Assembly (NCBI GenBank): GCA_965242965.1
Contig: OZ251518.1
Span: 5,088,001-5,152,000, forward strand
DNA length: 64,000 nucleotides
Source of the DNA: Candidatus Poribacteria bacterium
GTDB lineage: Bacteria > Poribacteria > WGA-4E > WGA-3G
Reading direction: 5' to 3'
Made by a program: the position numbers and the translations under genes
Part shown: positions 41,682 to 56,700 of the stretch, piece by piece
Layout of the letters: every line of letters begins with the position of its first letter
Position numbering within the stretch: position 1 is the stretch's first letter
Notes under the pieces: model-generated
Told to the model about the DNA's origin: nothing
What the model saw: the letters and a program-made list of their open reading frames with translations, nothing else
The model's database searches: none

Positions 41682-42953
41682 ATGGCCACCTCAACCATCA
41701 ATAAATTCCTGCTCATCTCAATCGATTGCTGGCGGTTTGACGCGCTCAGCCGCACCAATCCGTCCTTCAATACGCCCAAGTTTGAGCTCCTGACGAAAGA
41801 CTTCTCCCTCGCCGAGAAGTTCTTCGTCACCGCGCCTGCGACGCGTCCATCGCATACCTCCTATTTTACCGGGCTCTATCCGTTTGAGCACGGCGTTTAC
41901 GGGCAAACCTATCTGAAGATGTTTGAGGGCATCCCGAACCTCTTTCAGATTTTTGCCGATGCCGGGTATCATATCACGGGCCGTTCGGAACGGCATGAAG
42001 TATTCCGCTTCCTCGATTTTGAGCCGTTCATCACACCGCTTGACCCGGGTGCTACGGCGCAACACCTCGGTTCGCTTGAAGATTGCATCCGGCACCTCGC
42101 GCAACCCTCAGATACGCCGCAGTTCTGCTTCCTCCATTTTTGGTATACGCACGGCGGCTACGGTATGTCAGGCATCCCATCCGCACCTAATTTCAAGACG
42201 CTTGTGGAGAGCGGTAGAACCGATGAAGCACTATGCTTCTATTACGCCGCCGTGACGCACGTGCTGGAGTTCAAATTGGTCGAAATCCTGAAACACCTGC
42301 GCCTTTCCGAGTGGGCAGTCTTCATCTTCGGAGACCACGGTGAAGGCATCTGTGAAGAAATCATCGCGCACGGCGACACGCTGAATCAGAATGTGTTGCA
42401 TGTCCCGCTGTTGATGCATATTCCGAATGTTGGAAAATTGGATTTTCCGAATGCCCCGCTGTGCTCCCTCGATCTTTTTCCGACAATCACCAACCTCGCT
42501 GGCATTGACATTGACGTGGACTATCACGGCTATGGGAAAAACCTACTCGCGCCGGAAGCAATTGACGAAAACCGACTTGTGCTATCGGAATTAGATAGTC
42601 TATACGGCATTGGATTTCTGAGTCGGAGCAACCTGGAAATGCCGCACCACCGCGTCACCTCTCGCATATCGGTTGACAACGTTGAGATTCATCGGTATGC
42701 AGAAGGCGTTCGACTCTGGTCCCTCACCGATGGCGAGCATCTCTATCGCGAAGATGAGAAAACGGGTGAGTTTGTTTACCGAGAGGTGCTGAGTGGCGAG
42801 GATTTGCCGTGCGATGAGTCGGAACGTTTCCGCGCGGCTTATGACGACATCCTGATGAATTCCCATTACCAGCACCTCCAATTCCAAGAGACGACTGCGG
42901 AGGAGACAGAGATTCTGGAAGGGCGGCTGCGGGATTTGGGGTATGTGGAGTAA
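41682..42953 (+). CDS. Sulfatase-like alkaline-phosphatase-superfamily hydrolase/transferase
   Basis: LISIDCWRFD, TRPSHTSYFTG, GDHGE, LHVPL, RLRDLGY. Confidence 0.85.
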   Translation: MATSTINKFLLISIDCWRFDALSRTNPSFNTPKFELLTKDFSLAEKFFVTAPATRPSHTSYFTGLYPFEHGVYGQTYLKMFEGIPNLFQIFADAGYHITGRSERHEVFRFLDFEPFITPLDPGATAQHLGSLEDCIRHLAQPSDTPQFCFLHFWYTHGGYGMSGIPSAPNFKTLVESGRTDEALCFYYAAVTHVLEFKLVEILKHLRLSEWAVFIFGDHGEGICEEIIAHGDTLNQNVLHVPLLMHIPNVGKLDFPNAPLCSLDLFPTITNLAGIDIDVDYHGYGKNLLAPEAIDENRLVLSELDSLYGIGFLSRSNLEMPHHRVTSRISVDNVEIHRYAEGVRLWSLTDGEHLYREDEKTGEFVYREVLSGEDLPCDESERFRAAYDDILMNSHYQHLQFQETTAEETEILEGRLRDLGYVE

Positions 42954-43149
42954 GTGTTCGCGGGATTTACGAATCCCGCGAGCCGACTTTATGCATTGAT
43001 TGCGGTGAATCGCTTCACCAATTCCTTCTTCACCGCTTTCACCAGTTTGCTGTCATCTACCTCACACCCGGAACGATTCCGTTTCCCCGGTAGGAGAGAC
43101 CTCCCAGTCTTGATTTTTCCTCCCGGTAGGCGAGACCAGGAGGTCTCGC

Positions 43150-44859
43150 CTACCGAGCGGGTAAGGTTGTCAACACAATCTGCGCCTCGTCTTGCTGGAT
43201 GTCAGGCGGGAGCGGTTTGTAGGTGCCGTCAGGCAGCCGCTGCATCCCGCGGACCTTATCTGCTGCGAGTTGCGCATCCTTCTCTGCCAAGTAGAAGTAT
43301 CCGTCCTCTTCGTAAGTTTCAATGTCCGGAAACGGTTTCGTTCGCGCGGCAACCACCAAGAGCTCAACGCCAAACGGGGGTGTGCAGCGAAACTCGCCAA
43401 TCTCAACGTCGGTATTGGCTTGAGACGCGTCAATATAGTAGTCGTCTTGGAGGAGCGTGTATCTGCCGGTTTCAACCGGGCCCCTAAGGTTTCCACGTTC
43501 TCTTTCATCAGCGAGGATATAGAGCAGCCGGAGGTGGGCTGGTTGATTCACCCGCACAAAGACTTTCATTCTCTCGTCTTCGGTGTAAAGCACGGGGCCG
43601 CTACCTTTGTTTGTCCGGGCTTCAACCTTTAAACGGCCGTCGGTGAAAACCCGCCGTTCAACGAAAACTTTTGGATCGAACTGTTCCATTCCTCGCTCGC
43701 CGAGGGCATAGTCTGGCGGCGCGAAAGTTTCCTGTTCAGCACGAGCTGGCTGATAACCGGGTGGTTCAAAAGCAATCGGCGGACTGTAGCGGAGCTCCGA
43801 CTTGCGAAATGGCACGACAGTCGCTGCCAGAAATTCCCCTGTTTTTACATCGCGTAGGGCAGCCCGGAGGGTGAGTTCATCTCCGTTCTTCCAATAGGCA
43901 CCGTAAAGTTTTAACTGAGGATTCGGGCGGCGGATATTGGCATTTTCTTCCGTGGAGCCGCGCATTCTTTCAACAGTATCCCACTCAATTTTTTCCCGAA
44001 AGCCGTCGACGAAAATGAGATGAGATGGGCTGCACATCCCAGAATCTTCATAGGGGAACGGTTCTACCCAGACTTTGCGCCCAGGGCGGGGCACTTGCCG
44101 TAACAGTTGAGACGCAGCGACATAGGCTACATCCTCAAGAGAAACAATCGGTTTTTCCTCTAGTTCCGCAACGCGCTTAACGACGTGCCTGAACGAACTT
44201 TTATCAGTTGCTGTTGCAGCCTGCGCCATTTCCGCGAACGCTTGCGTCAAATGCGTCGAATGAGGATAATATGCCGCGCCTAGTTGAATGAGTTGCGCCT
44301 CTCTCAACGCTTCGTAAAGCGGATAGGTGCTCAAGTATTTCTGCACCGCGCTGGGGATGTCAAGATTGTCCTCCGCGGCTTGAGCTTTGTCAAGGATGCG
44401 GCGAATCTTTCGTTGCAGCTCTGATTCACGTTCGGCATAGATAACCTTGAGTTCGGCGCGGTTGACATAAGCGATGGCGTAGGTATCCAAATCTGTGCGC
44501 GCCCTATCTACCGTCAGGTTCCTGTTATGGAGCCCCGAGAGTTTCATTGATTCTGAACTCACGAGGACTGTGCTGTAGTGTTCCACTACCATGTTGTATT
44601 GCAAGTTATTGCTGTTGGCGTTAAGAATGCACCAGACCATGGCAACAATCCGTTTCGCCGCTTCCTTTCGGGCTTCTGCGGCAGCAATCTCAAAGGATTT
44701 TTCGCCAATTCCCCGGCCTCGCCCTACGTCGAAAAGGAACGTTTCAACGGGATACCTGCTGAGCTCCGGTAGGACCCAATCCGGTAAATCTGACTGTGCA
44801 GCATGCGCTGTTGCAGTTGCCGCAAACACAATCAGCAAGCAAACAAAAAATCTTTTCAT
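43150..44859 (-). CDS. Secreted protein: LPP20-like N-terminus, FlgO-like middle, DUF4384 C-terminus
   Basis: Signal peptide ATAHA; PDWV..AEARKEAA; YTEDERMKVFVRVNQPAHLRLLY..PPFGVELLVVAA. Confidence 0.7.
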   Translation of the reverse strand: MKRFFVCLLIVFAATATAHAAQSDLPDWVLPELSRYPVETFLFDVGRGRGIGEKSFEIAAAEARKEAAKRIVAMVWCILNANSNNLQYNMVVEHYSTVLVSSESMKLSGLHNRNLTVDRARTDLDTYAIAYVNRAELKVIYAERESELQRKIRRILDKAQAAEDNLDIPSAVQKYLSTYPLYEALREAQLIQLGAAYYPHSTHLTQAFAEMAQAATATDKSSFRHVVKRVAELEEKPIVSLEDVAYVAASQLLRQVPRPGRKVWVEPFPYEDSGMCSPSHLIFVDGFREKIEWDTVERMRGSTEENANIRRPNPQLKLYGAYWKNGDELTLRAALRDVKTGEFLAATVVPFRKSELRYSPPIAFEPPGYQPARAEQETFAPPDYALGERGMEQFDPKVFVERRVFTDGRLKVEARTNKGSGPVLYTEDERMKVFVRVNQPAHLRLLYILADERERGNLRGPVETGRYTLLQDDYYIDASQANTDVEIGEFRCTPPFGVELLVVAARTKPFPDIETYEEDGYFYLAEKDAQLAADKVRGMQRLPDGTYKPLPPDIQQDEAQIVLTTLPAR

Positions 44860-44901
44860 CTGTTAAGGATTCCTTATTTTAGTTAGTAGGTTGATAGTTT
44901 G

Positions 44902-44932
44902 GCTGACTTGATGCCGAAGCATCAAAGTCAGC
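44902..44932. other. Intergenic stem-loop
   Basis: GCTGACTTGATGC-CGAA-GCATCAAAGTCAGC. Confidence 0.55.
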
Positions 44933-44954
44933 GGATTCTCTCCGATTTGCGATG

Positions 44955-47165
44955 TTACTTTGCGATGAACAGGAAATCGCTCCCTGTCTCATCGCTTCCG
45001 AATCTACCGTAGCGCGGTTGAGGGCTCACCTCCTTGATGTAACCGAAAAGTTCGTCAAGGGTTAAGACGCTGTCTTCGCCGCCACCACTGCGTAGTGCCT
45101 CAAGGAATTTGCTGACAAACGGTGATGGGCCAGCCTCCTTTCCACTGAACGTGAGATACCGACGACTCCCGGCATCCCTACCCCTTTCGTCTTCGCGCAA
45201 GGAATTGGATGTTCCACTGAAGCGCGCATCTATCATCAGTAAGATATGTTGACACTGGGCACCGTCAAGAAGTTCCCAGAGAGATTCCTGGGAGACATAA
45301 CTGGTTAGCCCCGGGTCATCCGCTTCAAGTTTTGTGTCTTGAGCGACGATGTAGTCTTTTCCGAGGGACACATCAAAATACCCGCGTCCAGCGAAGAAAA
45401 CGAGGAGCTGATCTTCAGCGTCGTACTGCCGTATTGCATATTCATTGAGTTTTTCCAAGAGTTCGGTTCGCGCTGGATTTTCGACGAGTTCAACGTCAAA
45501 ACCGTAGGTTTGCTCCAGTTCCGTCTTGATTTTCATCGCATCAGGAATTGGATTGACGAGCTCTTCCCAATGTTCATAGGCATTGGTGGCGAACACTAGC
45601 GCGTTACCTTTTCTTATCGGCGGTGGTGGAGGTTCAACAATTGGCAATTCAATTGTCGCTCGCACATCCGCGCCGCCGAATTTATCAGTGATAGACACGT
45701 TCAGTATTAGGATTTGTGTCGTGCTGTTCTGTCTGATACCAACGTTGAAGGTATCCTTTTTGGACGCACCGGGGATGATGTCGCCGAGGTTTCTTGAGGG
45801 TTCTCCGAACAATTCAATCCCTTGTTCACCTTCTACCTCTATGCGGACAGTGACATCTTCGGCGTTTCCCTCGCCACTGTTTGTAACAGTTATCGAGAAA
45901 TCAATGGATTCACCCGGTTGAATAACCCCATCGCCATTGCCAACATCCTCAACGTAGGAATAATGGTAATCAAATTTTGGCGGTGGTGCGCCCACGATGT
46001 GCAGTCGCCTCTCCTTATCAGGCGGCGCGTAATTGTTATATTCCGCGAAACGCAGCGGGATTGTGAGAGTCTGTGTTTTCATAGAGGCCTCTGTTTTGAC
46101 AGGCAATTTCAACGTTCGCGATGCCCCTACGGCAATCTTTCCAAACTCCAACTTCTTGTTTTTGAACGCGGACTCGGTGCTCACAGTGTGAGTGGTGAAA
46201 CGGTAAAGAGCCCCTTTGCCGCTATTTTCGACAGTGACGCTTAATGTTGTCGTGTCTCCTGCACGCACCGGGTTGGGTTTCCAACGGGCTTCAACAACTT
46301 TCGCTAACGGTTTTCCCACCGGTTGGCCCGTTGAAAACATATCAATGCCTTCAACAACTTTGAGCGCGTGCCACCGAAACGGTTTTAATTGTTCCCATCC
46401 CTCAAGAGTGAGGGTTTCTTCGCCTGTTTTTCCATCAACCTTTGTGGAAGCGTGCACGTCAATAGATGAAAGGTTCAAGAAAGGCTTTGGTTCTTCGAGT
46501 CCATACAAGAATCCATGAATTGGGACTGTTTCATCGCCGGATGTCGTTCGGTACTGCTTGCTAAAATCGTAGGTTGGCAGTTCAATGCGATAATCCTGTT
46601 GTCTGATGCCTTGCAGTGAGCCCGCCTCTTCGCCTGTCTGCGCCCAACCTGTCCGGTGGGTTCGCCTAATGCTTCCGATGAGCCGATAAAGGACGATATC
46701 CACCGGCACACCTATCATTATCGCTTTGTTCCAGAAACTGGTTCCCTCCCAGTCAAACCGGAAATCATAGGGCTCAAAGTTGTCCCAGTCGACCTGGGTA
46801 TCCGCCAACTTTTCCTCCTTATATAACCACGTATCGTAGATTGCCTTACCCCAAAGTGCGGTGGTAGCGAGTCCAACCGCCAAATCGAGAAGTGTGGATT
46901 CGGGACGGTATTTGATGATGTCGCGCTGTTCAATTTTGTAATGGGGGACATATTGCAATTGAAACCGGAAGTCAGTTTCTGTTGCACCGAATTGAATCTG
47001 GAAGTCGCGGGGGTGCACCTCATTTCGGCGTTCTTCGGTATCAACGACAGTCGTCCTGTCGATGCCGTATCCAAAACTATTTTCCACGAGTCTGACTGCA
47101 GAGCATCCTGCTGTGCTCAGCACAATCACGCTGAACACCAAGACGTTGATGAGTTTGTGTTTCAT
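44955..47165 (-). CDS. Lipoprotein with two CARDB/Ig-like domains and a catalytically dead caspase (C14) domain
   Basis: Lipobox TAGC; GNGDGVIQPGE; caspase motifs read FFAGRG and MIDARF instead of AGHG and DAC. Confidence 0.85.
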   Translation of the reverse strand: MKHKLINVLVFSVIVLSTAGCSAVRLVENSFGYGIDRTTVVDTEERRNEVHPRDFQIQFGATETDFRFQLQYVPHYKIEQRDIIKYRPESTLLDLAVGLATTALWGKAIYDTWLYKEEKLADTQVDWDNFEPYDFRFDWEGTSFWNKAIMIGVPVDIVLYRLIGSIRRTHRTGWAQTGEEAGSLQGIRQQDYRIELPTYDFSKQYRTTSGDETVPIHGFLYGLEEPKPFLNLSSIDVHASTKVDGKTGEETLTLEGWEQLKPFRWHALKVVEGIDMFSTGQPVGKPLAKVVEARWKPNPVRAGDTTTLSVTVENSGKGALYRFTTHTVSTESAFKNKKLEFGKIAVGASRTLKLPVKTEASMKTQTLTIPLRFAEYNNYAPPDKERRLHIVGAPPPKFDYHYSYVEDVGNGDGVIQPGESIDFSITVTNSGEGNAEDVTVRIEVEGEQGIELFGEPSRNLGDIIPGASKKDTFNVGIRQNSTTQILILNVSITDKFGGADVRATIELPIVEPPPPPIRKGNALVFATNAYEHWEELVNPIPDAMKIKTELEQTYGFDVELVENPARTELLEKLNEYAIRQYDAEDQLLVFFAGRGYFDVSLGKDYIVAQDTKLEADDPGLTSYVSQESLWELLDGAQCQHILLMIDARFSGTSNSLREDERGRDAGSRRYLTFSGKEAGPSPFVSKFLEALRSGGGEDSVLTLDELFGYIKEVSPQPRYGRFGSDETGSDFLFIAK

Positions 47166-47236
47166 ATGCCGTTCCTTTTCGGTTTTTGAAATGATACCAA
47201 AATTCACGAAAAAAGTCAACTGTGTGCTGCTGACAC

Positions 47237-50200
47237 TTACTTCGTGATGAACAGAAAATCACTCCCGGGTTCATTGCGATGTCCGAATTTGCCTTGGTGA
47301 GGTTGGGGTTTCGCCTGCTCAACGTAACTGAAAAGCTCATTGAGGGTTAAGATTCCATCTTCGCCGCCTCTATCGCGGAGTGCCTCAAGCACCCAGTAGG
47401 CAAATTCTGATTTGTCGGGAACGTATTCGTTGCCGCCGGAAGTCATGTAGCGACGTGTCTTATACCCCATCACACGTTCAACGTTCACGGGCTTATCCTC
47501 ATTCTCCGCGCCTCTATGCCCGAGGAGTTCGTGATCGAGTGTTCCACCGAAGCAGGCATCTATCATCAGAAAGATATGTTTGCACGCAATATTGTCAATG
47601 CGTTCCTTGAGCAGCGGATAGGAAATATAACTGATGTGTTCTCTGTCGTTATCAGGCAGCTCCGTATCACGGGCGACGAGGTATCCGATTGGGAAAATCT
47701 CATCGAAATAGCCGTGCCCGGCGAAGAATATCATCACCTGGTCTTCGGGGTGATACGTCTTGGCTGCGTATTCACGGAGTTTAGCGAAGACCTCCTGCAT
47801 CGTCGGGTTGAGAATCAATTCAACTTCAAAACCGTAGGTATCCACTAATTCCGTTTCAATTTTCATCGCGTCAAGGCTTGGATTGTGGAGTTTCTGCCAG
47901 TGTTCGTATTCATTCACAGCAAACAACAGTGCGTAATCCTTTCCCTTCCTTTCATATCCATTCGGCACAACCGGCACACCACAATCGATGATGAGATTCT
48001 TGACTGCCTCGTTCCCCAGGGTATCCGTTGCCGTGATATGAATGCGGTTCTCCCCAAGGACAAGCGTGATATCTTTCACGAATTGCCCTGTTTCTGAAAC
48101 CTGCACCCGTTCGCCGTTGACGCGAACTTCGGCAATCCCACTCCTGTCATGGGCCCTGCCAATGAGAGGCAACTCCTTCTCCGTGACAACGATTATTGGT
48201 TGGAAGCCGCGGACCCCCGGCGGCGAGTCAATGAAAATCTCGGGGCCTTCATCATCTGGCTCTTCTGGTTCTGGCCGTGTGATGGTAAGTGTCGTAGTCG
48301 CCGTGAGCCCCCACTCATCTGTTGCCATGACAGAGATTGGGTTTTCACCATAGTTCAGCGGGACTTCTGCCTTGAATGCACCGGTTTTCAAGACTCGCAC
48401 CGGTTTCTCGTTGACGGTAACATCACGAATTCCGCTAGCAGGGTTGACGGTCCCGGCGATAATTATCTGCTTGTCCCTCTCTTCAACGGTGAAAGGTGAA
48501 CGGCGCGGATAGTTGATGTCAATCGTAAGGGACGGATTGCGAATGAAGGTGACTACCTCGGATGCTTCGTTTCCCCACCTATCGGTTGCCGTGATAGTGA
48601 TGTGATTTTCACCGGGGACGAGCGAAACTTCTGCCTTGAATGCACCGTTTGGCAAAACCCGCACCGGTTCCTCGTTGACGGTGACTTTAGGGATTTCACC
48701 ACTGTTATCAGTGACGTTCCCCGTGACAATTTTCTTGTCGTCATCCGGTGCAACCATAAAAGGCGATTCGGGAGGGAAATTGATGACAATCTCTGGCGGA
48801 ATGTCATCTACGCGAGTGACTAGAACTTCCTCAGTTTTTCTGTTGCCCCAGGTATCTGTTGCCGTGATGAGGATGCGATTTTTACCAAAGTTCAGGGCGA
48901 ATTCTTCCTGAAATGCGCCGACTGGCGAAACCTGCACCCGTACGCCATTGACAGTCACTTCCGAAATCCCGCTAGCATCTACGGCTCTGCCTGAAATCGG
49001 CAGCATCTCCGCCGAGGTAGTTGGTGGTATCGGCGGGTTAATGACAATTTCGGGTGGTGTATTATCGCCACCGCGGTTGATTATGAGTTCCTTCTTCGCT
49101 GGATTTCCCGCCATGTCTATTGCGACAATGCTGATGCTATTCGCGCCCGAGTCAAGAGCGACTTCTGCTTTGAATGCGCCGGTTTCCAAAACCCGCACCT
49201 TTTTCTCGTTGACGCTGACCTCGGCAATCCCACTAGAGTCCATCGCACTCCCGGATACGACAATCTTTCTCACATCCGCTTTGACGGTAAAAGGCGAACT
49301 GGGAGGATAATGGATAGCAATTTCGGGTAGCACCGTATCCCGAAGCGGAGGCGGTATTGGAACTACATCGCGCAGATTCCAGATTAAAACAGTGCTATCT
49401 CGGCTTCCGGTAGCGAGCATCGTTCCCATCGGTGAAAAGGCTACTGAAGTCACCCCATCAGTGTGCCCTTCAAGGGAAGCGAGTTTCGTTCTAGATGAAA
49501 CATCCCATAGGTTCACATTATCGCTAACACTTGTCAATCCTGTGGCGAGCATCTTCCCATCAGGCGAAAAAGTTAGTGCCTCTACATAGCCAATGTGTTC
49601 AAGGGTTGCAACGGCTTGCCCGGTAGAGACATCCCAGAACTTTACGGCATTGTCACTACTGCCACTTGCGAGCATTTTGCCATCGGGTGAAAATGCAACC
49701 GCGTACACAGAATGGCTGTGCCCGTTTAAGGGCCTGATTTCAGGTTCGGCACTAACAGTCCAGAGTTTGACAGTGCCATCATAACTTCCCGATGCAAGGG
49801 TATCTGCATTTGGGGAAAATGCAATGGAAGATACAGCCCCTCGGTGGCCTTCAACGGTGAAATTTTCGTTTATTCTTATCCCGAACCGCCGGCGGGATGT
49901 TGTGTCAACAGACCAGGTTCTTATTTTGCCATCGTAACTCCCGCTAGCGAGCGTCTGTCCATCGGGCGAAAACCGAACCGTCTGGACCCAATTTCTGTGC
50001 TTCAGCGTCTCAATTTCATGCCGGCTATCCACATTCCACAATTTGACAGTTTTATCGGCACTTGCCGAGGCGAGCAACTTTCCATCTGGTGAAAACGCTA
50101 CCGACTTCACCCAGTCTTTGTGCCCGGTGAGCGGCGAGAGTTCGCGATGGGCAACAGTATCCCACAGTTGGACGGTGTTATCACTAACGCCGCTGACGAG

Positions 50201-51400
50201 CAACTTTCCATCTGGCGAAAATGCAACAGCATACACTGGGCTGCTGTAGTCAATCTGCGTTATCGCGTTTTCGGGGAGAGCGCGGGAGAGTGGCACCTGC
50301 CTTAAAGGTTGCGGTGCAGCGTCGGAATTATCTTGCACTACGAGACTGATTTCGGAATTTGGAGATTGCGGTGCAGCGTCAGAATTATCTTGCACTACGG
50401 GACTGATGTTGAACTCGGAGAGATTCCAGAGAAAAATTGTCCCGTCCTCGCTACCACTTGCAAGGATATTTCCATCGGGAGAAAATGCTACCGCCTTCAC
50501 ATCTTTGCGGTGGCCCGTAAGGGTATCAATTTCGCGCCCGCTTTCCACATCCCACAACTTGATTGTGTCATCCCAGCTTGCCGAGGCAAGCGTCTTTCCA
50601 TTAGGTGAAAAAGCGACAGAAGAAATAGCGTGCCGATGTCCTTTGAGTGTCGCGATGTCATTCCAATTTTCAGCAGTCCAGAGTTTAACCGTGTTATCTT
50701 CGCTCGCGGATGCGAGCATCTTCCCATCAGGCGAGAAAACGATAGCGGACACATCCTCGCGGTATCCCCAGAGCGCGCCGATATCACGCTTTTCAGCGAC
50801 ATCCCAGAGTTTGACAGTCGCATCGCTTACCGAATTGAGGATATCACCGGCTGACACGAGCGTCTCCCCGTCCGGCGAAAACGCCACCGACTTCACATCC
50901 TTGTTGTCATCACGGAGAGTGGCGATTTCGCGCCGGTTCTTCACATCCCACAACTTAACCGTGTAATCCCGGCTGCCGCTGGCGAGCGTCTTCCCATCAG
51001 CAGTAAATGCAACGGAATTGACACCCCGGGTGTGTCCCTTGAAGGTATAGATTCCCTCGCGTTTGCCTTTAACAGTCCAGAGTTTAACGGTGTTATCTTC
51101 ACTTGCAGAAGCAAGAAAATCCGCATTAGGCGAAAAGGCAACCGAATTGACAGTGTCTCTGTGTCCTTTGAACTCAGTTATGCCGCGCCGATTCTCAATA
51201 TCCCACAATTTGATAAGCGCGCCACTTGCCGAGGCGAGGAACCGTCCATCGGGAGAAAATGCAACGGACGTTACGCTGTCGCTGAGTCTCCCCAGTTGCG
51301 TTCTCGTGTCATCAGGGAGTGCCGCCTTGGGATAAACCAAACTCGTTAGATGGATGAGGAGTGTGAACCCGAGGAGAATGGAATGGTTTTTGAATCGCAT
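47237..51400 (-). CDS. Secreted WD40 (about 14 repeats) + five Ig-like domains + caspase (C14) protein
   Basis: Signal peptide; GH..V.SVAFSPDG..LASGS.D.TVKLW repeats; D..PPEI.I Ig repeats; intact FFAGHG and MIDACF dyad. Confidence 0.92.
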   Translation of the reverse strand: MRFKNHSILLGFTLLIHLTSLVYPKAALPDDTRTQLGRLSDSVTSVAFSPDGRFLASASGALIKLWDIENRRGITEFKGHRDTVNSVAFSPNADFLASASEDNTVKLWTVKGKREGIYTFKGHTRGVNSVAFTADGKTLASGSRDYTVKLWDVKNRREIATLRDDNKDVKSVAFSPDGETLVSAGDILNSVSDATVKLWDVAEKRDIGALWGYREDVSAIVFSPDGKMLASASEDNTVKLWTAENWNDIATLKGHRHAISSVAFSPNGKTLASASWDDTIKLWDVESGREIDTLTGHRKDVKAVAFSPDGNILASGSEDGTIFLWNLSEFNISPVVQDNSDAAPQSPNSEISLVVQDNSDAAPQPLRQVPLSRALPENAITQIDYSSPVYAVAFSPDGKLLVSGVSDNTVQLWDTVAHRELSPLTGHKDWVKSVAFSPDGKLLASASADKTVKLWNVDSRHEIETLKHRNWVQTVRFSPDGQTLASGSYDGKIRTWSVDTTSRRRFGIRINENFTVEGHRGAVSSIAFSPNADTLASGSYDGTVKLWTVSAEPEIRPLNGHSHSVYAVAFSPDGKMLASGSSDNAVKFWDVSTGQAVATLEHIGYVEALTFSPDGKMLATGLTSVSDNVNLWDVSSRTKLASLEGHTDGVTSVAFSPMGTMLATGSRDSTVLIWNLRDVVPIPPPLRDTVLPEIAIHYPPSSPFTVKADVRKIVVSGSAMDSSGIAEVSVNEKKVRVLETGAFKAEVALDSGANSISIVAIDMAGNPAKKELIINRGGDNTPPEIVINPPIPPTTSAEMLPISGRAVDASGISEVTVNGVRVQVSPVGAFQEEFALNFGKNRILITATDTWGNRKTEEVLVTRVDDIPPEIVINFPPESPFMVAPDDDKKIVTGNVTDNSGEIPKVTVNEEPVRVLPNGAFKAEVSLVPGENHITITATDRWGNEASEVVTFIRNPSLTIDINYPRRSPFTVEERDKQIIIAGTVNPASGIRDVTVNEKPVRVLKTGAFKAEVPLNYGENPISVMATDEWGLTATTTLTITRPEPEEPDDEGPEIFIDSPPGVRGFQPIIVVTEKELPLIGRAHDRSGIAEVRVNGERVQVSETGQFVKDITLVLGENRIHITATDTLGNEAVKNLIIDCGVPVVPNGYERKGKDYALLFAVNEYEHWQKLHNPSLDAMKIETELVDTYGFEVELILNPTMQEVFAKLREYAAKTYHPEDQVMIFFAGHGYFDEIFPIGYLVARDTELPDNDREHISYISYPLLKERIDNIACKHIFLMIDACFGGTLDHELLGHRGAENEDKPVNVERVMGYKTRRYMTSGGNEYVPDKSEFAYWVLEALRDRGGEDGILTLNELFSYVEQAKPQPHQGKFGHRNEPGSDFLFITK

Positions 51401-51491
51401 TATTTTCTGATGGGCATCACGCATGCCTTTGTCAAGCCGCCTCTGCTGCGGAACCTCGTTTTATGGTATGAGATAGTAGTTCTATCGTTGG

Positions 51492-51796
51492 TGTAGCGCG
51501 AACGCTGGCGAGGGACAGGTCCTCGCCCTACGGTGAAAGCGGGCTTTTCTCTGTCCGTAGCGCGGGGGCCTGTCCCCCGAGATCGTTGGAGTGCGCACGA
51601 TGGCGAGGGAAACCCGTTCGCCAGCGTGTGTGGAAACCTGCGAGGGCCCTCGCCCTACGATGAAGGGGGACCTTCTGCCGCGGCGGCCCCGGGAGGCGCG
51701 CCGCCCTATTGCATCGAGACCAGGAGGTCTCTCCTACGGAGACATCAATTGCATCGAGACCGGGAGGGCGCGCCAACGGATTTATGAAACACCCTG
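51492..51796. repeat. REP-like cassette ending in TATGAAACACCCTG
   Basis: Inverted near-copy of 21461-21790. Confidence 0.85.
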
Positions 51797-51801
51797 AATT
51801 A

Positions 51802-51831
51802 ATTATACACTTTGAGTATAGCAATTGTCAA
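51802..51831 (-). promoter_or_regulatory. Sigma70 promoter facing the caspase genes
   Basis: TTGACA-18 nt-TATAAT. Confidence 0.65.
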
Positions 51832-51868
51832 GGAGAAACCCTTAAGATTTGACACTTGACGCGCACCG

Positions 51869-52999
51869 CTAATTCCTGAAGAGAGCCAGATACTTCTCCA
51901 GCACAAAAAGGCGGTTGCGGGAGAACCCAGTCATTTCCTTTAACACCCCAAGTTTTGTTAGGGACTTGAGAAGTTGATTCGCTGTTGCATAGTTCATTTC
52001 TAACGCACTTTCAACCAATCTAACGTTGACAATTGGCGTTGCGTACATGAAACTCAGCAATTTTTGGGCGTTTTTCGCTGGACGCGAGCCAAGGTTTAGG
52101 ATTTTCGCGTCGTATTCCTGACGGAGCGAAATAATCGCTTCGAACGTTTCAATGCCGTGCCGCGCTGTTGCAGCGATGCCGTTCAAGAAAAAAGCTATCC
52201 ACTGCTCCAAGTTGTTTGACTTGCGAACCATTGTGAGTGAATCGTAGTAGGAATCCCGATGCTTATCAAAGAAAGAAGACATATAGAGCACCGGTTTATC
52301 CAGCATCTGTGCGTCAATGAGTTGCAGAACGATCAAGAGCCTTCCACACCTACCGTTCCCGTCCAAAAACGGATGGATGGTTTCAAACTGATAATGCGTG
52401 ATAGCGATTTTGATCAGCGTCGGAATCTGTAGCGACTGGTTGTGCCAGAATTTCTCTAAGTCGCTTAAAAGTTCCGGCACCTCCGCCGCGGAGGGCGGCA
52501 CAAAAAACGCATCCGAAAGCGAGGAGCCACCAATCCAATTTTGACTCCTGCGAATCTCACCAGGGGCCCTATGCTCACCGCGAACTCCAGAGAGCAAGAT
52601 TTGATGCGCTTCCCGCAGCAGACGCATCGAAAGCGGTAACACCGGAAGTTTGTCAATCGCCGAATTCATCGCTTGGATATAGTTCTGAACCTCATGCCAA
52701 TCCTCGCGACGCTCCGGGTCGATCTCCTCGTGCGGTAGCACCGCTTCGTCAAGTTCGGTTTTTGTCCCTTCAATCCGATTAGAGTCTATCGCTTCTTTCC
52801 TCACCTGCATTTGGATGAAGAAATCGACATCCGGCACGAGGCCGGCGTAGGCATTTAACTCGCCTAAAAGCCGGCCTGCCTGTTCCAAGAGAACATCTAT
52901 CTGCGAGTTTTTCCAACTAAAATGACAGTTGATAAAAGAAGGGATGAAACTCCTATATTCTCGTTGCTGCCTATATTTGCCCGCTACGAATGTTTTCAT
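51869..52999 (-). CDS. Fic family protein with N-terminal Fic_N and C-terminal wHTH
   Basis: [43 protein letters not shown]. Confidence 0.93.
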
Positions 53000-53027
53000 G
53001 TCCCCATCCTCCAATTTAGGACAATTT

Positions 53028-53190
53028 AGAATTCCATATTATCATTTTTCCCGATTTTTAATAATACAGAATTCCATATTATCATTTTTCCCGATTTTTA
53101 ATAATATAGAATTCCTCATTATCATTTTCGGCGATTTTTGATAACCATAAACGCTATATTATCATTTTCGGCGATTTTTGATAATCATAA
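53028..53190. repeat. Four AT-rich 40-bp tandem repeats upstream of fic
   Basis: ATTATCA at 53038, 53078, 53118 and 53158. Confidence 0.9.
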
Positions 53191-53218
53191 ATTGATTGGC
53201 GAACTATAAAACTCGCCT

Positions 53219-53701
53219 CTACAATTCATGAATCTTCGCCGCAAGCGTGCCCAAATCCACAATCGCGACGGTAGACTTTCCTGTCGTCCAGCCGCCTGCC
53301 TCCCCTGGATTAAGCAGAAGAGACCTCTCGTTCTGAACATCGATCTGGTGTGTGTGGCCGTAAACGACGATGTCATACACGCCGCTTTTGGCAATCGGAA
53401 TAGCGAGTTCAGGATAGTGCATCACGGCGATGCTCCTGCCGCCGACAGAAACGTTCGCTAAATTCGGGTGAACCTCGCCGACAGCTTCAAACCGCTGCGC
53501 GAGGATAACGCGCTCGCCATCGTTGTTACCGAACACACCGACGACTCGGCACTCCAAATCGGCAAGGGGTGCTATTGCAAACGGCGAAATAAAATCGCCC
53601 GCGTGGACTACCAACTCTACGCCAGCATCGTTGAAGAAGGCGACAGCGCGTTCAATCTGCGGGATGTTATCGTGACTATCGGACATTACGCCAAGTTTCA
53701 T
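53219..53701 (-). CDS. YfcE/MJ0936-type metallophosphoesterase
   Basis: SDSHDN, HAGD, GNND, YGHTH, LNPGE. Confidence 0.92.
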   Translation of the reverse strand: MKLGVMSDSHDNIPQIERAVAFFNDAGVELVVHAGDFISPFAIAPLADLECRVVGVFGNNDGERVILAQRFEAVGEVHPNLANVSVGGRSIAVMHYPELAIPIAKSGVYDIVVYGHTHQIDVQNERSLLLNPGEAGGWTTGKSTVAIVDLGTLAAKIHEL

Positions 53702-56700
53702 GAGGGTTCTCCTTTTGTGTTATCGTGTCGTTGAATTCCGCGTTCATTGAGTTGTGCTAATTCTTTTTCCAAGTTGCACCGGGATTTCTTCCCACCGTGA
53801 ATGCTCGGTTCGGCAGAGAGAAGTTCCCTGAGTTTGCCTAAGGCTCGGTGGACATCGGGAGTGTGGATGTCCAGCACCTCGCGAAGCAGACGGCTGTCAA
53901 GTGTGTGACGGCCCGGGTCATCCGCAACTTCGTTAAACGGCAACATCCGTTCGTGTTTCAATTCGTGGAAAACGCGTTCGGCATTCGCTAACGCCTCATC
54001 CGAAAGACGGCGCACATCCAAGGACGGCATTCGGAGTAGGGCTCCCCTTGAACTTCTACCCCTTTTAGCCTGTTGTTTTCCACTGTGCATCCACTGGAGC
54101 ATGAGCCCAAGCGTTGAATTACCCCAGAGCGTCCAGACGTAGTCGTAATGAGAGTTTTTCAACACAACAGTCGGCAGTGAACTTATCCCAATAGCGGGTT
54201 CTTCCGTGAAGAGGACACCCAGTGAGTTTGAACTGAATCCCATACTTATGTTGAAATGGACGCGGCTGTTGAGTGCCAGTATCCGCTGTGCTTTGTCATG
54301 GCGATTGGGACGAGGAATGAGATGGCAATCGGGTTTAACCAACATGGCGCGTTGTGCAGGCGCATTCACTCGCCACAATCCGGGATAAAGGACCGGGGTG
54401 GCATAACTTTCTTCCACGTCAAACGCCCCGCGCTCCCCAGATTCATGAATATCCCTTTGATGCGCGCCGACCTCGGCAATATCGCCTACGCTGCACATAG
54501 GGATTTGTAACGGCCTCGCCTGCGTTGGTAACCACAACTCACCTGTCCCTAGGCGATACGCCGATTGGATTAACGCCATCTCCTTTATCCGAGTGGCTTC
54601 CCAGGCACCGTTCTCCTTAAGCGGACAATTGAGAACATGCCCGACAGTGCCCTCGCCGATTTTAACCAGGTCTGCGCCAATCGGGCCATCTTCCATCCGA
54701 CGCGTGCTTTTCACTCGGTGGACAGTATTTCCCACTTCGATGGCTTCTAACACGCTCCGCGGCCGATGGGTAAGCGAGACAAATGTGCCGCGCCCTGTGC
54801 ATTCCGCTTTTTCCCCTTTCGTTGCAATGACGATGCACTCCGCCATGCTTGTATCCGCCGAGAAGGCGCAGTTCTCGCCTTTCGCATCGGCGATTGTCAC
54901 CACAATCACGTCGTGGTATTCTGTCGCCCACATATCGCGGACTTTCTGCCAATGCGGTGAAACAAGGCACGTCAGCGGCAGAATGAACCCCATCTGGCTT
55001 TTCCCGTTGGGTTTTAACATCCTATCGGCAAGATCGACGAAATCGGACGCGAGCCCCGCGTTGCCGTTGCCGACGCGAAAATTTTTCCTTCTCCGCGCCG
55101 CCCGCATCTCTTGTTCTTCCTCCTTGTCCCTTCCACTCCCCTTGAAAACCGCTTTGGGCGCACCGCTACTCGCATCAGAATCCGGACGCGTAAACGGCGG
55201 ATTCTCCACGACAATATCAAAGTCTTCGTGCCTGAATTGATGCTGCGCCGTTACCGTCATGTCGTCTGCACCCCCAATCCGCTGCGCGGCTATCTCCAAG
55301 CCCATCAGGGGCAGCGGGAGGGTTTTTTCCGGCGTGTCAAGCAGCTCAAGCGAACCGAGGGCATAACTGCCATCGTCTTGTTTACCGTAAGGCAATGTGA
55401 AGATACAGGTATCCCCTATCTTGATATCCGGGGCGATGCTCGTCAGCAGTGCCGCGGTAAGATGACTGGCGTTCGGCATCACATCGCATCCGACGATGTT
55501 CTGCTCTATCATCGCCTTGTGGATGAGGTGCCCTTTACCACCTGCTTGTTCGTGCAGTTCAAGCATCCGTTGGTAGGCACCGTAGAGGAGCGAACCGGTG
55601 CCGCATGAGAAATCGGCTACCCGCAACGCGCGCACATTCGTCTGCCTTCTGGGGAGCACTAACGCCGAGAGCAAAGCAACCGATTCCAGCCGCGTATAGT
55701 TCGCTTTGATATACTTTCTGTCGACAATCAGGCGTTGGAAAACTGTCCCCGCGAGCTCATGCATCTGCGTCAGCCGCTCATCTACCAATGCTATCGCCGC
55801 ACGACATAGCAGCGCGAGCACGCTATCCACGCGTGCGTCGTCCGTGGCAATCGCCTCGATGAGCCGTTTGGCGACAGAGAAAATCGGACGGTAATTCACG
55901 TCCAGAATCACATCCCACCCCGTGAGAACCTGTTTGTAGGGCAGCCGTTCCGCATCGTCGGAGAGCAGCCGTTTCAGGGACAAGACACCTTTCACTTTCC
56001 CGGCGAGCGTGCTTTGAAACACAAGCGCGTTCGTGACGATGAGCATCGCCATCCGAGAGGTTTGCACACCCGACTTCTGGAAGAGAATCGCCTCAATTTC
56101 TGTTCCGATGTCAGGACGTTCCTGAATTGCAGCCTCCAATTGCTGCGCCGCAAACTCTATCCGTTGTTGCAACAAATCAGCAGCGGCATCAATTTGGGCG
56201 ATAGGTGTCGCGCGAACGCGAAGTACGGTTGCGATGTCGGCAACACTCCCTTGCAGCCATCCGTTTTCAGGGAAGCAGTCGGGTGACGCTAGGTTATTAA
56301 ATGTATGTGAAGGGGGGGGGGTAATTCTCCTTCTTTCAGCATCTGTTCAGGTGCCGCTTCATTGATGAACAAAGCCTGTTCGGATGCCGACGTGCCTACT
56401 GGTTTCGGCTGGCTGAGGAGCAGATAAGCGATGTCTTCCGCCTCGCGCATTTCGGATTCAATGGTGTCCTGCGGCATCGTTTTGAATCGGGCCGGCATCC
56501 GGATGCGCATCACATGCGAAACGGTATTGTAAGTGAGATAGGGAACAACGTTGGCATCGAGAAGCCTCCCGAAATGTGCTTCTGCTTGTGTCCTGCCTGA
56601 AAGATTCGGCGTATCGCCATCGATTTTCACCTCAATGACGATAGGATTCCGTCCGACTTCGGTGACGATGACATCAGGCTTTTTGGTAGCGTTGAGGAAC

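Follow-up and report, generated by a model that had tools for sequence, protein, structure and literature searches.

An exported WD40-Ig-caspase encoded beside a lipoprotein with a dead caspase domain and a DUF4384/LPP20-type protein in Candidatus Poribacteria

The window analysed here is a stretch of 64,000 nucleotides (G000:C1:5088001-5152000) from a genome of Candidatus Poribacteria (G000; 5.7 Mb, two contigs), in which three long open reading frames (ORFs), termed g1, g2 and g3, fill positions 43150-51424 on the minus strand. g1 encodes an exported protein of WD40 propellers, immunoglobulin-like (Ig-like) domains and a caspase of the C14 family, g2 a lipoprotein ending in a related caspase domain in which both catalytic residues are replaced by arginine, and g3 a secreted protein of the DUF4384/LPP20 type. 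It is proposed, with about an even chance of being right, that the trio is an extracytoplasmic (periplasmic or surface) orthocaspase module in which g2 would tether or regulate the live g1 and g3 would act as adaptor or substrate. For the parts and for their export the support is good, and they are much more certain than the mechanism, that is the contact between g1 and g2, the role of g3, the substrate and the purpose, which we infer.

In g1, fourteen WD40 stretches (PF00400, E 3.4e-157) fall into two blocks, and the Peptidase_C14 domain (PF00656) scores 59.4 bits against a Pfam cut-off of 21.4. Its dyad residues, His1237 (CAC) and Cys1291 (TGC), align with the dyads of 27 related caspase domains and are kept in 7 of 7 close orthologues of g1. 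Export, here as for g2 and g3, was judged from the sequence and its Kyte-Doolittle hydrophobicity; read from the Met9 start that some gene calls use, the N-terminus of g1 (MRFKNHSILLGFTLLIHLTSLVYPKA, followed by A) is signal-like. One search returned 225 WD40-Ig-caspases, and the relatives of g1 carry one or two propellers and three or five Ig domains, the propeller number changing even among near relatives, as the close orthologues P0136 and P0144 (~1095 aa) are without propeller 1. This variable copy number of WD40 and Ig domains fits a module for recognition or reach. The linker between the propellers of g1 (50240-50389, residues 346-395) contains a duplicated VVQDNSDAAPQ motif.

The ORF of g2 reaches a TTG at 47219 (754 aa), and its preferred start is the ATG at 47165, with which the database protein P0124 (736 aa) begins. 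From this start the N-terminus (MKHKLINVLVFSVIVLSTAGC) is a lipobox-type signal, which under the lipobox rule marks a bacterial lipoprotein, and all 13 aligned homologues have the lipobox Cys. The domain that follows belongs to no Pfam family; an Atlas search with it was uninformative (best score only 0.85), and a VIA structure search with its model, of low confidence, gave no identity. Its two hydrophobic segments (~46668-46905, residues ~88-166; Kyte-Doolittle up to 2.35 in long forms) may form a membrane-embedded helical hairpin. Next come two CARDB domains (PF07705, 44.2 bits against a cut-off of 22.7, two stretches) and a Peptidase_C14 match of 49.0 bits, also above the Pfam cut-off, which is 48-50% identical to the caspase domain of g1 and in which Arg612 and Arg666 (both CGC, at 45384-45386 and 45222-45224; numbering from the TTG start) occupy the His and Cys positions. 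Residues 519-736 of an AlphaFold 2 (AF2) model align, in a low-confidence region, with MALT1 (Z 11.9), Dronc (11.1), c-FLIP (3h13, 10.6) and metacaspase 4 (10.5), and the C-terminal part also aligns with caspases and GSU0716. Given that the model is poor, the fold match is weak support for a retained caspase fold, and a PDB sequence search with g2 returned weak caspase matches only.

g3 begins with a classical Sec-type signal peptide, ending in AHA before A, and not with a lipobox. Its match to DUF4384 (PF14326) is partial and lies below the Pfam cut-off of 27 (18.9 bits, E 1.6e-3), and g3 itself has no LPP20 (PF02169) or FlgO (PF17680) match in Pfam even at E<=10. Among 23 aligned members of its family, DUF4384 is found at E<=0.01 in all 23 (best 3.6e-9), LPP20 in 7 and FlgO in 3, and many of the 136 full-length homologues returned by one search were already annotated with PF14326; by these matches g3 is, at family level, a DUF4384/LPP20-type protein. 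An AlphaFold model on the family alignment (predicted local distance difference test, pLDDT, 78.9; predicted template modelling score, pTM, 0.66) has a helical region (residues 134-255) after the LPP20-like domain and a low-confidence linker of variable length (residues 381-407) before the DUF4384 domain. Residues 239-353 match LpoB (4q6l; Foldseek E 1.3e-4; VIA Z 9.6, root-mean-square deviation 3.2, 112 aligned residues), and the other fold matches, TolB (TolB-N), PelC, GNA1162, HP1454 and FlgT, are likewise to envelope proteins. Macroglobulin, Ig and PKD matches of the beta-sandwich (Z 8-9.4) lie within the common range and no function was drawn from them; a PDB sequence search with g3 found nothing, its best match (FlhD, E 0.37) being taken as chance. 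With export signals that are conserved and, in g3, folds of envelope type, all three proteins are placed outside the cytoplasm.

A preliminary description of this stretch had reported three co-oriented genes, each with an export signal. The arrangement is as described, as are the propellers, five Ig domains and intact C14 dyad of g1, whose His and Cys codons lie exactly where they had been placed, and the export signals, weak in g1, are signal-like by sequence and hydrophobicity and are conserved in relatives. For g2, the lipoprotein signal, the Ig (CARDB) domains and the pseudo-caspase stand, and the wording 'closely paralogous' is somewhat generous at such an identity. The assignment of g3 as LPP20/FlgO/DUF4384-like is right for its family and does not carry over to g3's own Pfam matches, with DUF4384 below threshold and LPP20 and FlgO absent. 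The roles that it gave the three proteins, of sensor-protease, membrane-tethered regulator and substrate or adaptor in envelope surveillance or host interaction, are putative.

Table 1. Coordinates (window numbering) of the three genes, their domains and two intergenic elements.
Feature	Position	Strand	Details
g1	47237..51424	minus	1395 aa; WD40 x2, Ig x5, C14 caspase; some gene calls start at Met9 (51398-51400)
g1 signal peptide	51323..51424	minus	residues 1-34; predicted cleavage between YPKA and A
g1 WD40 propeller 1	50390..51292	minus	~residues 45-345
g1 WD40 propeller 2	49355..50239	minus	~residues 396-690
g1 five Ig-like domains	47975..49327	minus	Glucodextran_B-type PF09136, E 1.8e-54, 5 stretches
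g1 Peptidase_C14 domain	47240..47974	minus	His1237 at 47714-47716, Cys1291 at 47552-47554
g2	44955..47165	minus	736 aa from ATG at 47165; ORF to TTG at 47219
g2 lipoprotein signal peptide	47103..47165	minus	predicted; cleavage between LSTAG and C (…VLSTAG, then C); lipobox Cys21 at 47103-47105
g2 N-terminal domain	46290..47102	minus	~270 aa; no Pfam match; two conserved hydrophobic segments; AF2 pLDDT ~50-74
g2 two CARDB-type Ig-like domains	45648..46289	minus	PF07705; AF2 pLDDT 80-92
g2 pseudo-caspase domain	44958..45647	minus	Arg codons at 45384-45386 (His position) and 45222-45224 (Cys position)
g3	43150..44859	minus	569 aa; secreted; LPP20-like / helical / LpoB-C-like / DUF4384
g3 N-terminal LPP20-like alpha/beta domain	44461..44742	minus	residues 40-133; from secondary structure and LPP20 matches in relatives
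g3 LpoB C-domain-like alpha/beta domain	43801..44145	minus	residues 239-353
g3 DUF4384 beta-sandwich	43153..43644	minus	residues 406-569
13-14 bp hairpin	44902-44932	minus	between g2 stop and g3 start; one copy in window, 0 expected by chance
Sigma-70 consensus promoter-like site	51802-51831	minus	12/12 (TTGACA-18-TATAAT); consensus match only

The loss of the dyad sets g2 apart from its relatives: His and Cys are both present in all 27 related caspase domains that were aligned, that of the long fused form in G004 among them, and g2 alone has Arg at both positions. The set of g2 orthologues comprises the window protein and five metagenome proteins (P0125-P0129) that are 67-90% identical over residues 300-754. 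The Cys is replaced by Arg in all six and the His in five, P0125 retaining it. Identity to g2 is 81-96% in the N-domain, 70-90% in the CARDB part and 70-90% in the pseudo-caspase; these values are alike, hence the dead domain shows no faster decay than the other parts, and the 6 bases that are missing beside the Cys-position codon in other samples leave the frame intact. Judged from these alignments, the dead state is old and maintained. Furthermore, of 55 columns without variation among 23 live domains, 42 hold the same residue in all six pseudo domains, among them those of Asp1185 and Asp1289, which would by motif position, not by structural alignment, correspond to the acidic S1 pocket residues of PMC6426788. 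Changes common to all six are C1291R, G1247D, P1257E, D1297N/S/P, S1329F and deletion of D1337, with H1237R in five. Maximum-likelihood analysis groups the six pseudo domains in one clade (100/100), its stem long (0.6) and its inner branches short; at deeper level the tree favours neither the g1 lineage nor the long fused form as the source of the dead domain.

Nineteen genome loci around g3 relatives, in metagenome-assembled genomes (MAGs) of Candidatus Poribacteria, were annotated, of which all but L013 are assessable. Seventeen of these 18 loci have a caspase gene no more than 10 kb from g3, in two different architectures, and since the 5.7-Mb genome has only 10 C14 matches, the chance of such an adjacency would be a few percent. 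In ten loci (group A: L001, L002, L007-L012, L014 and L017; g3 ~41-47% identical) a WD40-Ig-caspase stands directly 5' of g3, and in the nine with enough upstream sequence the full unit is a lipoprotein, then the caspase, then g3, as against caspase, lipoprotein, g3 in the window. The group-A lipoprotein (~336-358 aa) is homologous to the N-domain of g2 plus one CARDB, and the caspase (863-929 aa) has a single propeller and three Ig domains before the caspase domain; a lipobox is present in 9 of 9 of the former, and 9 of 9 of the latter have signal-like N-termini that are stronger than that of g1. In the seven loci of group B (L003-L006, L015, L018 and L019), one to three caspase-PEGA(-FGE-sulfatase) genes precede g3. 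Five of them (L003-L006 and L018) encode a conserved lipobox protein between the caspases and g3, a Big_2 protein by Pfam in the three scanned (L003, L005 and L018), and both the group-B caspases and the Big_2 proteins carry export-type N-termini. The one remaining locus, L016:271-7634, from a MAG labelled Eubacteriales, has its g3 homologue after a CsgG-like and three LPP20-domain genes, with no caspase nearby.

A search with g2 that covered 151 genomes of the phylum found three architectures. The split form, a lipoprotein of 345-382 aa adjoining a WD40-Ig-caspase of 860-930 aa, occurs in ~13 of the 151. A long form fused to a live caspase (ORFs of 920-1013 aa) is present in G004, G076, G125, G148 (two tandem copies) and G150, and G110 has a 1105-aa frame of this long g2-like form; in G004, the g2-like module and the caspase share one 913-aa ORF, with two g3-like genes nearby on the opposite strand. 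Metagenome proteins P0130-P0135 (964-980 aa) are of the same long form and have an SH3-like and Ig insert between CARDB and caspase. The short, dead, 736-aa fused form was found in G000 only. The lipoprotein module and the caspase are neighbours in some genomes and one fused protein in others, a Rosetta-stone pattern that argues for a functional link between g1 and g2; it is the strongest support for this link, which we nevertheless infer from gene arrangement.

The order of genes in the window is borne out by independent samples. The 30 bins of 43100-51900 are all covered by contigs from four runs of four studies, single contigs span g3-g2 (X1 record 2, X6 record 26 and X10 record 10) and g2-g1 (X6 record 27 and X10 record 11), and the window order is thus bridged by contigs from three other studies. 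The bridging contigs differ in ~1-5% of letters, and the listed insertions and deletions inside genes are in frame or net multiples of three. In addition, g3 and g2 orthologues are found on equally long contigs (P0004/P0125 15267, P0006/P0127 8399, P0010/P0129 5498), which suggests that each pair shares a contig. The preliminary description had named a lack of the trio elsewhere as evidence against it; the components do recur across Poribacteria in split and fused form. Beyond what it had proposed, the dead caspase is confined to this lineage, the order and fusion differ from the common form, and the type of module extends outside the phylum.

The last point rests on a profile search of 1.84 billion representative proteins, which found 1450 relatives of g3 at E<=1e-3, of which 746 remain at <=1e-10 and 320 at <=1e-30, with many full-length proteins among them; in the Atlas, look-alike DUF4384 clusters are mostly labelled Bacteroidota (score 0.97), and clusters of DUF4384+LPP20+FlgO and of DUF4384+CsgG in other phyla, with scores below 0.9, serve as leads only. 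In 80 metagenome loci around distant g3 homologues, searched with a hidden Markov model (HMM) built from the Poribacterial caspase domains, a caspase ORF was found in the flanks of 23 (19 of 75 without near-duplicates, and 12 of the 24 loci of at least 12 kb). Among the Pfam matches listed, a WD40-caspase is confirmed in L056 and L060, a caspase-PEGA protein in L053 and, in L038, a caspase domain on its own; the WD40 proteins of L065 and L081 are assigned as caspases by the purpose-built HMM, and L101 has a TPR-CHAT protein 2.2 kb from the g3 homologue. Seven long metagenome loci scanned with Pfam showed no caspase. The linkage of g3 with caspases beyond Poribacteria is recurrent, not obligate.

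The genes and repeats around the trio bear on how it may be expressed and on what it may serve. On the same strand 5' of the trio lie SoFic (PADLOC E 1.8e-115), a metallophosphoesterase gene and an Eco57I/PglX-like methyltransferase gene; at 51869-56175 (minus strand) the SoFic-type Fic gene, the Metallophos_2 gene and the 825-aa methyltransferase make up a small defence-like cluster adjoining the trio. On the opposite strand 3' of the trio are a sulfatase gene and an FG-GAP/RGL11-like gene. No transposase was seen around the trio in the annotated surroundings and no secretion-system gene adjoining it, and an Rfam scan of 42500-52500 found no RNA family. Two further ORFs, of 98 aa (51528-51824, inside a repeat array) and 177 aa (42954-43487, antisense to g3), have no Pfam match and were judged spurious. 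The hairpin between g2 and g3 is near-perfect, has a UUCG loop on the coding strand and is not followed by a T run; it may be an element of RNA stability or processing. The consensus promoter-like site lies ~380 nt 5' of g1, just past the SoFic stop codon and 5' of a repeat array; if it drives g1, that array would be contained in a leader of ~370 nt. Both flanks of the trio (51485-51800 and 43064-43160) are arrays of short GC-rich palindromic repeats, e.g. GAGACCTCCTGGTCTC and GCGAGGGCCCTCGC. A 100-nt piece of them has more than 2,700 matching places in the 5.7-Mb genome, and the bins of these arrays reach depths of up to ~2 million in metagenome runs; the arrays look like a REP-like (repetitive extragenic palindromic) intergenic family of extraordinary copy number. 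All four runs contain 'joints' that skip from 43153 to 51710, as excision of the trio as a mobile cassette might produce, and this was rejected: the sides of the joints are short (18-25 letters) and the same repeat family stands on both flanks, so that the joints are not evidence of mobility.

Caspase genes are also clustered elsewhere. G000 has a second g3 paralogue (C1:4002625-4004253, 37% identical), of the group-B type, with three large caspase ORFs around it (C1:4001429-4011096), and a separate cluster of five caspase-domain ORFs in 17 kb (C1:1243047-1259846). Arrays of five to seven caspase-domain ORFs adjoining g3 homologues, or tandem copies of the long fused form, occur at G116:C1:21702-32237, G129:C1:2656993-2667634 and G148:C60:43524-49332. 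At L009:4747-5208, ~1 kb 5' of a group-A unit, lies a CAP12/Pycsar-type TIR effector gene (E 7.4e-39).

Parts of this picture are already published: WD40 and DUF4384 have been described as companions of orthocaspases, and pseudo-orthocaspases as a class, in PMC7475262 and PMC6426788. According to the former, WD40 is found in 9% of cyanobacterial orthocaspases (OCAs) and DUF4384 is listed as an accessory domain; shared with the trio are the p20-type caspase domain with its His-Cys dyad and these two companions. In g1, however, the caspase is C-terminal to WD40 and Ig domains and behind a signal peptide, and DUF4384 is on a separate secreted protein, whereas the cyanobacterial models described put the p20 domain in the cytoplasm. 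Klemencic et al. (2019, PMC6426788) count 858 pseudo-variants among 9,994 bacterial orthocaspases. As in g2, both dyad residues are substituted in these, and they retain the acidic residues of the specificity pocket, with which the two invariant Asp of g2, placed by motif only, would agree. The dyads named in the main-text passages of that paper are YS, YA, FS, QC, HA, YN and YG, with Arg/Arg not among them, and g2 differs further in that its dead domain sits on a CARDB lipoprotein directly beside a live paralogue and that its closest homologues are all live. In the type III-E 'Craspase', Csx30, which in some lineages ends in DUF4384, is cut in a flexible linker by Csx29 (bioRxiv 10.1101/2022.08.17.504292). 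There too a caspase-like protease is linked to a DUF4384 partner, and g3 has a variable linker before its DUF4384 domain; Craspase, unlike the trio, is cytoplasmic and RNA-guided and its protease is CHAT, not C14, and no CRISPR genes are present at this locus. The folds of the g3 model match lipoprotein domains of the LPP20, HP1454, GNA1162, LpoB, PelC and TolB-N kind, and its relatives have LPP20 and FlgO matches in Pfam; in contrast to such lipoproteins, g3 is a multi-domain protein of 569 aa with a Sec-type signal and no LPP20 match of its own. In searches of the open-access literature, judged by the papers listed, no exported WD40-Ig-caspase with a separate LPP20/DUF4384 partner was found, nor a lipoprotein module split from a caspase, fused to one or fused to one in dead form, nor, in the main-text passages of PMC6426788, whose supplementary tables possibly list rarer dyads, an Arg/Arg dyad.

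In the mechanism proposed here, g1 would be the catalytic subunit, the only competent one, with its WD40 and Ig domains selecting or reaching the target. g2 would be the membrane-anchored lipoprotein, whose module in relatives stands apart as a partner of the caspase or is joined to a live one. Its dead domain, with His and Cys both changed to Arg, would be kept by selection as a non-catalytic domain of caspase fold that most likely docks on the live protease or competes for its substrate, and so tethers, gates or buffers the activity; alternatively, it could bind the same substrates without cutting them, thereby buffering or presenting them. g3 would be the conserved third partner and, given that it is the constant companion of otherwise different caspases, a scaffold or adaptor or else a cleaved substrate, a role made plausible by analogy with those Csx30 proteins whose C-terminal domain is DUF4384.

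Several points weigh against this proposal. Of the three signal peptides, that of g1 has the weakest hydrophobic core (Kyte-Doolittle 1.47), and the AlphaFold model of g2 is poor (pLDDT 61.8, pTM 0.30), its caspase part mostly below 70. Metacaspase-type C14 enzymes are generally monomeric, which makes a FLIP-like heterodimer not the default expectation. The linkage between g3 and caspases fails in L016 and in 12 of the 24 long metagenome loci, g3 relatives also neighbour CsgG/LPP20 genes, and the related loci are kin, so that the counts overstate their independence. Moreover, the trio was not found in the sampled genomes of the same genus, G001 and G002, both of which are without g2 and the latter of which has a group-B unit only. 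Finally, a terminator-like hairpin with a T run (47234-47215) and a promoter-like site (47219-47191, 10/12 match) in the gap between g1 and g2, together with the hairpin between g2 and g3, mean that the trio may not be one operon.

The rival explanations overlap in part with the proposed module, as they differ mainly in the purpose assigned to it. It is possible that the caspase-like domain of g2 is a functionless relic of a fusion or deletion and that the system works like the split form. The restriction of the short dead form to G000 among the 151 phylum genomes, the loss of invariant positions beyond the dyad (G1247D, P1257E, D1297N/S/P, S1329F and the deleted D1337) and the long stem of the pseudo clade would all be consistent with this. 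Such a relic is nevertheless improbable: the frame of g2 is intact, the dead domain is as similar (70-90%) as CARDB among orthologues that differ by up to 30%, and both the 42 kept columns of 55 and the in-frame deletion beside the Cys-position codon speak for constraint. At the other extreme, the Arg/Arg domain could be a dedicated partner of the live exported caspase. c-FLIP is a dead paralogue that pairs with and regulates the live caspase-8; by analogy, g2 would dock on g1 or gate it at the membrane, and cleavage of the DUF4384 protein would be the output, as with Csx30, while the substituting Arg side chains might occupy the domain's own retained acidic S1 pocket. Here as there a live and a dead paralogue are encoded together, and the g2 model aligns with 3h13, as it does with many caspases; g1 and g2 are, by contrast, bacterial and extracytoplasmic and of unrelated architecture, so that the likeness is one of analogy only, and this version is given a correspondingly small chance. 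Were it true, the split form, the form fused to a live caspase and the form with a fused dead domain plus a live caspase would be snapshots of a protease evolving its own pseudo-enzyme regulator.

Two further explanations concern what the protease would act upon. An outward, host- or prey-directed role, in which g1 is released or displayed and binds and cleaves sponge or other foreign proteins for nutrition or host manipulation while g2 and g3 only anchor or export it, seems unlikely on balance. Parts of the window are present in runs labelled sponge metagenome, the part assigned to recognition is modular and varies among relatives, the 'eukaryote-like' proteins of sponge symbionts typically include WD40 and Ig-like repeats, and the sulfatase and FG-GAP/RGL11-like neighbours would suit such a role; yet no secretion-system gene was seen beside the trio, the same type of module occurs in metagenome contigs that are not from sponges, and sulfatases are so common throughout such genomes that one nearby is weak evidence. 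Given the SoFic and Eco57I/PglX-like genes immediately upstream, the trio might be part of a defence or conflict system directed at phage, predators or competitors, in which the sensing of invaders or of envelope damage sets off proteolysis. Both caspase domains match the PADLOC 'caspase' model (3.2e-9 and 4.7e-5), the g3 family is patchy (48 of 151 phylum genomes) and a Pycsar-type TIR gene lies near one related locus (L009). This scenario is very unlikely, as all three proteins are exported, unlike the known caspase-like defence effectors, which are cytoplasmic, no NTPase, sensor or nuclease partner is present, and the flanks differ among related loci, so that SoFic is not a constant neighbour.

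Homologues of caspases are numerous in bacteria and, to our knowledge, almost none has a known substrate, partner or location. The locus described here belongs to a recurrent and apparently unstudied module that joins an exported WD40-caspase with an LPP20/DUF4384 envelope protein. It amounts to a natural experiment, in which one lipoprotein module occurs on its own, joined to a live caspase, or joined to a conserved dead caspase with a live one alongside, and it thereby gives testable pairs with which the tethering and regulation of caspase-like proteases outside the cytoplasm, and the origin of pseudo-proteases, may be approached. The lineage is a dominant one among sponge symbionts, in which it is suspected that exported repeat proteins of the eukaryote-like kind act on the host.

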